From: Curvularia clavata
Taxonomy: Eukaryota
DNA: 64,000 nt
NCBI GenBank assembly: GCA_023920165.1
Contig: CP089279.1
Coordinates: 2,542,001 to 2,606,000 of the forward strand
Direction of reading: 5' to 3'
The notes below the pieces were generated by a model that did no database searches, had not been told where the DNA came from, and was given only the letters and a program-made list of their open reading frames with translations. The position numbers and the translations under genes were made by a program. Each line of letters opens with the position of its first letter. The stretch's first letter is position 1. Below, one piece after another: positions 30,584-31,718 of this stretch.

Positions 30584-31718
30584 ATGTTTGTTCCACGAGC
30601 GCTGCGGCTCAAGGGCGTCCGTGAGAAACCGAGGCCAAACACTTCTCTACCCCTAACAAGCAATACTGAGCCAAACCAAGATGAAGCCCTGGTCAAGGCT
30701 ATGCAAAATACAAGTACAAACTCGCCTACCCCTCAACCAGAAGAACGCATTGAGCAAAAGGCTACCAAGACTGGTCCTAGTTTTACAATAAAACCAGTAA
30801 ATCCAGAGTACGTTGCTCAACTTGCTGCTGGTATCGAACTGATCTTCACCGACTACGCGCACCAAGAAGAGGAGCGAGCGAACTGGCTTCGAGAGCGTTA
30901 CCGGACGATAGATGGAGAAGAGAATTGTAAAGCGTTGCCGACTAAAAGGTCTGAACACAGCTAACCAGTACTCAGATATCCATCTTACAGCCATCCTCGA
31001 ACACCCCAATATCTCTTCGCTCAAGCCCGAAGCTTCTCAAGTCCTCCTGCAGCAAGCTCTCCGTGAATATCCCTCAAAAATACTCCAGGTCTCAAGCATT
31101 GGTTACCATGTCCGTCGCCTGCCCTCTTCGTACCCTCCAAAATACCTACCCAATAATTCGTTTGAAGTAGTCAATGACGATGGCCTGGCATTCTGGGACC
31201 AGCGCACCATCTATGTTGAACCGCACATGCGCAACTTGTGTCAGACGCCCGCTAAAGTGGCTCGTTGGCTCACAGAGCATGGTGAGTTGCGGCCTAAATG
31301 GCTGCCTGTACAAGCAGTGCACATGTTATGGAACAGTTGCGCTTTTGTTGTCCTCAGTGGAAATGTAATGCACGAGGATGTCTGGAACAAGTGGAGAGAA
31401 GCAAAGAAGCCTGAGAATTGGAAGATTATGACAAAGGTTGAGCATACGAAGCGCACGGCAGAATATATCGCGTTACTCGAGAAGGAGAACCCCAGAGGAA
31501 TGTCGAAGACTAAAATCGACAGTAGTGAGCTTCCTCCAATCGCGCGACCAGCAGTGCTCCCATCGGCAGCCCAGTCGGCTCCAGAGAATATGGGGAATGA
31601 TGGCCACCAAGGCAAGAAGAAGCGGAAGAGGCGAAAGCCAAACAAGTCCAATCTCAACACAGGAGACGCAGATGCTGAAGATGCAGGTAATGAACCAAGC
31701 ACCAAACGTAGGGGCTGA
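30584..31718 (+). CDS. Divergent La-motif + RRM protein, Pof8/LARP7-like; intron about 30927-30975
   Basis: Begins MFVPR; La-like block NPEYVAQLAAGIELIF...YIHLTAIL...YHVRR; RRM-like RTIYVEP...AFVVL...WKIMTKVEH; C-terminal KKKRKRRK NLS. Confidence 0.7.

Follow-up and report, generated by a model that had tools for sequence, protein, structure and literature searches.

Within a 64,000-nucleotide (nt) stretch of the Curvularia clavata genome (contig CP089279.1, positions 2,542,001 to 2,606,000; hereafter the window), a gene at 30584..31718 on the forward strand encodes a 361-amino-acid (aa) protein that is very probably an ortholog of Pof8/LARP7 and that almost certainly lacks the xRRM domain. 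It is an ortholog by descent, and not a family member under a definition based on the xRRM domain. The explanation we favor, with reasonable confidence, is that this is the Pleosporales version of Pof8, which lost its xRRM in a single event close to the order's base and acts as a nuclear adaptor for Lsm2-8 and Bin3 on U6.

The spliced reading frame starts with an ATG at 30584 and ends with a TGA at 31718. Based on frame analysis and run contigs, exon 1 (30584..30926, +) encodes aa 1-114 plus the first base of codon 115, and exon 2 (30976..31718, +) runs through the stop codon. Between them lies a 49-nt GT-AG intron (30927..30975, +; GTAAAG..CTAAC..CAG). Transcript evidence consists of assembled contigs, presumed to derive from RNA, from 4 of 24 listed runs in two studies. 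The contigs of all four runs skip exactly this intron, joining 30926 to 30976. An alternative acceptor at 30990, which would have kept the frame, was ruled out because the RNA-type contigs use another joint. Neither exon 2 nor the 3′ region shows a further joint in the contigs of any of the four runs, which extend unspliced past the stop as far as 32047-32229. The gene model of the initial annotation, with one intron, an MFVPR start and a stop, is confirmed, and every sequence block it named is present in the product (aa 1-11, 73-88, 115-122, 130-143, 158-162, 191-197, 237-241 and 260-278), along with the basic runs of the tail. In all four runs, base differences from the window occur at 31295, 31457 and 31590; two are silent and one changes M320 to L in the tail, and all three are probably strain differences.

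The sequence is not a product of chance, since it has 202 homologs at E≤0.001 among 464 candidates and shares 302 of 361 residues with its closest named homolog, Bipolaris oryzae P0001. Close named homologs are all from Pleosporales. In UniRef the Bipolaris proteins are named 'uncharacterized', and three dothideomycete relatives carry automatic La or xRRM names. Neither the two exons nor any of 40 Pleosporales orthologs gave a Pfam match to La, RRM or xRRM, and a sequence search of the PDB with a Pleosporales-only profile returned just two chance matches.

More distant relatives connect the protein to Pof8. With a 40-sequence Pleosporales-only profile, hmmsearch retrieved 113 proteins from 1.84 billion representatives; among the 37 long or distant matches scanned, the xRRM family PF19977 scored above the Pfam cut-off in 13 and below it in 2 more. 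The xRRM-bearing relatives belong to Pezizomycetes, Geoglossomycetes, lichen-associated lineages, Patellaria, Saitoella and a single basidiomycete. Where their start is intact it reads MF[VIL]PR, or MNFKPR in one protein. The Saitoella protein P0189 (XP_019027290.1) is an accession listed as Pof8-like in PMC8917221. Compared with the spliced window protein, it scores E 2.8e-23 and Tuber aestivum P0258 scores E 3.4e-35; neither matched the exons of the La, LARP1 or La-Arb1 genes that the genome also carries (E>200 for La and LARP1). A profile of 16 relatives matched the Pof8 xRRM (6U7V, 1.4e-17), LARP7 (7SLP, 2.9e-12, a match that includes the beta4-alpha3 stretch) and, less well than these two, La (1.7e-5). 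By hhalign, the Pleosporales family aligned to the xRRM-bearing family with a probability of 100 over the La module alone, which indicates that the RRM of the window protein is RRM1. We considered that this single RRM might be the xRRM itself and ruled this out, as it aligns with the RRM1 of relatives that carry a separate xRRM. Together, these matches support the filamentous-ascomycete Pof8 orthology proposed in the initial annotation. The likeness to S. pombe described there is also borne out: in the Supplementary Data of PMC8917221, Schizosaccharomyces pombe Pof8 starts MFVPR and shows, by eye, colinear VHLAFL, RIIYVEP, AFVIL and RKEW..EEKY blocks. When homologs were sought with a full-length profile, 9 proteins came back, S. 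pombe Pof8 not among them.

Structural comparisons used an AlphaFold model of the ortholog P0001 (84% identical) in place of the window protein. Its predicted local distance difference test score (pLDDT) averages 80.9 and is mostly >90 across aa 71-240. The model contains a winged-helix domain at ~74-162 and an RRM at 192-267; a helix spans 268-285, and the tail that follows is of low confidence. Foldseek ranked La modules top (E 5e-7) and LARP7 second (2e-5). VIA aligned 189 residues with La (Z 12.6; root-mean-square deviation 4.8) and 178 with LARP7 (Z 10.9; 5.4), with the LARP7 range reaching residue 404 and so covering its displaced beta4-alpha3. Judged from this model, a La module (La motif plus RRM1) is present in the window protein, in keeping with the La/RRM fold anticipated from the sequence blocks, and La and LARP7 are not separable by structure alone.

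These results bear on whether the protein is instead a diverged paralog of genuine La, given that fungal Lhp1 also combines a La motif, an RRM1 and a basic tail. The architecture equals that of the genome's own La exon, La occupies the top Foldseek and VIA rows, and in the ESM Atlas the named cluster closest to the protein is Lhp1 (0.90, compared to 0.87 for an xRRM cluster); with La/RRM clusters skipped, the sole cluster above 0.9 is likely the protein's own. However, the protein has strong homology to xRRM-bearing Pof8-like proteins and none to the genome's La, which a La-module profile also fails to match. It has an MFVPR start and a LARP7-type alpha3, and it nests among xRRM-bearing rows in the tree described below. 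The La-paralog reading is largely refuted, and we regard it as extremely improbable. PF05383, the Pfam La family, matched 0 of 40 Pleosporales rows. The Q, Y, Y, F and F positions of La, which we take to be its oligo-U contact residues, align to G, L, I, W and H/P in the family. Judged by these residues, by PF05383 and by orthology to the genome's La, the window protein is on sequence grounds not a genuine La. In its La motif the canonical oligo-U residues are replaced, as in Pof8, and the motif probably does not bind UUU-OH directly. Elsewhere in the genome, a single frame (L006:1504-3162; G000:C2 ~4743003) encodes a La motif (PF05383, E 2e-16) followed directly by the domain of the Argonaute chaperone Arb1 (PF09692).

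The absence of the xRRM, also claimed by the initial annotation, is seen in several ways. Pfam xRRM matched 0 of 40 Pleosporales rows, and the tail after the module spans 72 aa, compared to 120-133 positions for the xRRM domain. A custom xRRM profile scored 24 of 266 stored proteins, made up of its 16 training rows and 8 held-out proteins (one a cluster-mate of a training row). No Pleosporales protein scored (the next best had E 1.3), and the window, read in all six frames, gave nothing (best E 2). When held out, Patellaria scored 2e-12, Lepidopterella 3e-9 and Mytilinidion 0.01, compared to 26-79 for the window protein. The run contigs contain no spliced downstream exon. From the stop to the ATG of the next gene (32133) there are 414 bp, in which the longest frame is 46 codons; this 3′ untranslated or intergenic stretch (31719..32132, +) has no xRRM-coding frame, as noted earlier for the ~410 bp before the next gene, and no splice joint. 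The Delitschia ortholog is named 'XRRM domain-containing' in UniRef, yet no xRRM was found in it.

The initial annotation had offered two outcomes, a remodeled ribonucleoprotein (RNP) component or a split protein. In a split Pof8, a gene of its own or an exon further downstream would encode the xRRM, and the halves would act in trans. PMC7928011 describes xRRM proteins too short to hold a La module and suggests a trans partner; in addition, our genome searches were run exon by exon with a loose first look, and in the nearest orders the xRRM has diverged strongly. Against this, a downstream splice joint is absent in all four runs. PF19977 gave 0 candidates in the genome, and PF19977 plus four protein queries found no xRRM elsewhere in it, both in the absence of an xRRM-positive control genome. 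The Patellaria, Lepidopterella and P0228 queries match this locus alone, and an xRRM-only query has no match. Three RRM_3 matches (L009-L011), considered as separate xRRM genes, were ruled out as other RRM proteins. The published survey with an xRRM bait reports none in 110 Dothideomycetes, though it was blind to the decayed xRRMs found here. We conclude that a separate xRRM gene is probably absent from the genome and that a split Pof8 is improbable; the remodeled component is the outcome that we favor.

In a La-module tree of 47 rows, 28 xRRM-less rows form one clade (support 97/93), which groups with Mytilinidiales (Mytilinidion and Lepidopterella; 95/86). The tree excluded two partial proteins, Meredithblackwellia and the genome's own La (no alignable match). 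The direction of change is read as loss because xRRM-bearing rows surround the clade and both S. pombe Pof8 and LARP7 have xRRMs. Patellaria P0141, Lepidopterella P0265 and Mytilinidion P0136 are full-length Pof8-like proteins with decayed xRRMs, from species that the published table scores Pof8-negative. The Mytilinidion model has a second, RRM-like domain at 388-529 (beta-alpha-beta-beta-alpha-beta-alpha) and aligns with LARP7 over 404 columns; the Pof8 xRRM structures are not among the matches listed. Since the 28-row clade stands beside Mytilinidiales with decayed xRRMs, the sequences point to a single xRRM loss near the base of Pleosporales, after decay began in related orders. Outside Pleosporales, Peltula P0153 (with a KHIRF-like end), Xylona P0144 and Pseudovirgaria P0211 are also xRRM-less Pof8-like models. 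They may be further independent losses or faulty or truncated gene models.

Such additional losses or truncations, and the four label changes on the tree, could also suggest a decaying relic, a gene disappearing after xRRM loss as in lineages without Pof8. Among the matches listed, none is named from Capnodiales, Botryosphaeriales, Eurotiomycetes or Sordariomycetes. A relic is nevertheless very improbable: the gene is intact and spliced here, it is present in at least 36 of 52 listed Pleosporales, the branches of the clade are short, and the beta4-alpha3 stretch is conserved at 0.86.

The distribution differs from published surveys. According to PMC7928011, Ascomycota other than Taphrinomycotina and Pezizomycetes lack Pof8-like proteins, and PMC8917221 scores 0 of 110 Dothideomycetes as Pof8-positive; both surveys used the xRRM for searching. 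For at least 41 of the 110 Dothideomycetes in the PMC8917221 table we find a named ortholog, most without an xRRM. By the Bin3 calls of that table, a named ortholog occurs in at least 38 of 67 Bin3-positive Dothideomycetes, compared to at least 3 of 43 Bin3-negative ones; outside Pleosporales, the figures are at least 5 of 19 and at least 0 of 39. All of these counts are lower bounds drawn from among the matches listed. Two Eurotiomycetes rows examined in the table are Bin3-only, and since no Eurotiomycetes match is named, the gap in the published distribution is closed just in part. We found no report of an xRRM-less fungal Pof8 in the literature searched, the scope of which did not extend to the PMC5805695 and PMC8917221 supplementary figures.

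Within Pleosporales, conservation differs between parts of the protein. The best-kept parts are the N-terminal peptide (mean 0.89) and beta4-alpha3. The MFVPR peptide (aa 1-11; 30584..30616, +) corresponds to residues 2-10 of Pof8, the Lsm2-8-binding stretch in S. pombe, and MF[VIL]PR opens 37 of the 40 Pleosporales rows. The degenerate La motif (~aa 72-165; 30797..31127, +, interrupted by the intron) is delimited by the P0001 model, Foldseek and VIA. RRM1 (~aa 190-286; 31200..31490, +; mean 0.82) is placed by hhalign and by the model; in full-length Pof8-like proteins its colinear partner is RRM1 and not the xRRM. Its helix alpha3 (aa 268-285; 31434..31487, +) carries a LARP7-type K-x-E-[HW]-x-x-R-x-x-E-Y pattern. 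The basic tail (aa 287-361; 31491..31715, +) is of low confidence, with pLDDT mostly 45-60 past aa 310. It is poorly kept (0.53), is just 9-26 aa long in some gene models, and has basic runs at aa 328-335 and 357-361 and a likely nuclear localization signal at 31614-31637 (+). In relatives, this site is occupied by the xRRM and a C-terminal motif. On inspection, the KHIxF-like alpha4/MID motif, which binds MePCE, is absent from the 40 Pleosporales ends, whereas several full-length relatives and LARP7 have such an end.

Bin3, U6 and TERT genes are all present in the genome, the first being the Bmc1 counterpart that the initial annotation proposed looking for. We modeled a complex of P0001 aa 62-300 with a full-length Bin3 from a related fungus (a transcript from metagenome locus L026). 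The complex scored 0.89, compared to 0.00 for the best of three controls, with contact agreement of ≥93% between runs and a partner pLDDT of ≥87. Among microbial pairs, 51 of 78 solved ones attain the mark that the complex reached, as do 2 of 108 mismatched ones; the eukaryotic counts are 39 of 65 solved and 2 of 126 mismatched pairs. The predicted docking surface comprises helix alpha3 together with Y194, E196, P197, S235 and C236. Bin3 residues 104-120, a DY[YF]P[LI]SA loop also present in this genome's Bin3, are placed on Y194, E196, C236, R274 and Y278, and none of these five varies across the 40 Pleosporales rows. PMC10083321 describes how, in the 7SK core RNP of humans, the MePCE alpha3-beta3 loop touches LARP7 RRM1 alpha3 and MID; the modeled contacts coincide with that loop/alpha3 interface. 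Because the complex resembles one already solved, passing the mark shows likeness and not binding. We consider it likely that the protein binds Bin3, and nearly as likely that it binds Lsm2-8.

Work in S. pombe offers a framework for function. There the La motif of Pof8 lacks uridylate contacts, residues 2-10 bind Lsm2-8, and deleting them nearly abolishes Bmc1-U6 association (PMC10484740). An xRRM mutant retains U6, sno530 and Bmc1 binding and loses U6 A64 methylation, so that the xRRM matters for TER1 and U6 methylation and not for U6/Bmc1 binding (PMC10484740); mutants in xRRM alpha3 have shorter telomeres (PMC8881624). By analogy, the Pleosporales protein would act as a nuclear adaptor. 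Its MFVPR peptide would attach to the Lsm2-8 ring at the U-rich 3′ end of an RNA, and the YFPIS-type loop of Bin3/Bmc1, the capping enzyme, would dock on RRM1 and helix alpha3. Bin3 would thereby be tethered to U6 small nuclear RNA, and perhaps to U6 guide small nucleolar RNAs, without the RNA-remodeling activity of an xRRM. That U6 is the main RNA is slightly favored.

Alternatively, the protein could remain a constitutive telomerase subunit, with RRM1 and the Lsm2-8 peptide holding telomerase RNA and the xRRM's part played by the basic tail or by a different RRM protein. TERT is in the genome, RRM1 is well kept, and TER1 binding in S. pombe draws partly on RRM1 and the N-terminus (PMC8881624, PMC10484740). 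However, PMC8917221 calls the xRRM a major determinant of Pof8's telomerase role, the tail is poorly kept and very short in some gene models, and in the complex model Bin3 occupies the conserved face of RRM1. We consider such a constitutive role unlikely, and it is doubtful that the protein is still in telomerase at all.

Several observations weigh against the adaptor explanation or the orthology beneath it. The phenotypes of S. pombe xRRM mutants imply that a truncated protein cannot act exactly as Pof8 does. Pof8 of S. pombe was compared by eye and through its solved xRRM alone, and a broad profile matched La weakly (E 0.0017) and LARP7 not. Structurally, La scores equal to or above LARP7 by Foldseek and VIA. 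The complex score may reflect memory of the solved 7SK core RNP (7SLP/7SLQ), and the modeled chains come from two different fungi and are not the window genome's own proteins. Held out, the Mytilinidion xRRM scores weakly, and it falls to E 0.99 with all three dothideomycete rows dropped. The tree was midpoint-rooted without an outgroup, and Saitoella and Pseudovirgaria have long branches. Finally, the co-occurrence counts of Bin3 and this gene are not phylogenetically independent, and the Bin3-negative Corynespora (P0133), Parastagonospora (P0104) and Sporormia (P0129) still carry the gene. The Corynespora and Sporormia rows have long branches (0.91 and 0.73), as would be consistent with relaxed selection once Bin3 was lost, or with an overlooked Bin3.

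The named orthologs correct the published Pof8 distribution and, for Pleosporales, offer a possible answer to the question posed in the discussion of PMC8917221 of how Bin3 works and finds its RNA without LARP7. The lineage offers a natural deletion that separates xRRM-dependent LARP7 jobs (telomerase RNA folding, U6 methylation) from scaffolding jobs. A bolder proposal, which we make tentatively and with the balance somewhat against it, is that the Pleosporales protein is mainly a protein-binding clamp, gripping Bin3 through RRM1/alpha3 and Lsm2-8 through MFVPR, outside telomerase. If true, the conserved core of LARP7 function would be a MePCE-Lsm bridge and not the xRRM, and the fungal pattern of 'Bin3 without Pof8' would be partly an artifact of xRRM-based searching.

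Upstream, 206 bp away and divergent, lies a Wbp11-domain gene (29442..30377, -; PF09429, E 5.9e-24), so that a splicing-factor-type gene and the Pof8-like gene form a head-to-head pair. Downstream is an AMP-binding gene resembling 4-coumarate-CoA ligase (32133..34001, +; PF00501, E 1.6e-52), with introns seen in run contigs. The Pyrenophora seminiperda ortholog P0013 is labeled '4-coumarate-ligase 2' in NCBI, a name probably carried over from a neighboring gene resembling this one. An Rfam scan of window positions 25000-38000 gave no match.

Compared to known systems, the protein resembles genuine La/Lhp1 in combining a La motif, RRM1 and basic tail and in its top structural matches; it differs in that La is a separate gene here (L007), in having no sequence-level similarity to it, and in its replaced oligo-U residues. 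With human LARP7 of the 7SK core RNP (7SLP/7SLQ) it shares the La-module fold (the Z of 10.9 above) and the use of RRM1 alpha3 as the MePCE contact, mirrored in the complex model. Unlike LARP7, it has no xRRM2, no alpha4/MID and no long alpha2-beta4 loop; 7SK itself is described, in the sources consulted, in animals alone. The Pof8-like proteins of Tuber, Morchella, Glutinoglossum, Patellaria, Lepidopterella and Mytilinidion, which span Pezizomycetes, Geoglossomycetes, Patellariales and Mytilinidiales, have the same colinear N-peptide and La module (hhalign probability 100; pairwise E as low as 1e-77) and, unlike the window protein, retain an intact or decayed xRRM, several ending KHIxF-like. 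S. pombe Pof8/Lar7 (NP_594264.1; xRRM structures 6TZN and 6U7V) continues into an xRRM where the window protein has 72 aa of basic tail after alpha3. The two proteins share the MFVPR start, a degenerate La motif without oligo-U residues (PMC5805746), an RRM1 with IYVEP and a KEW/KVEH..EY helix, and a Bin3/Bmc1 encoded in the same genome.
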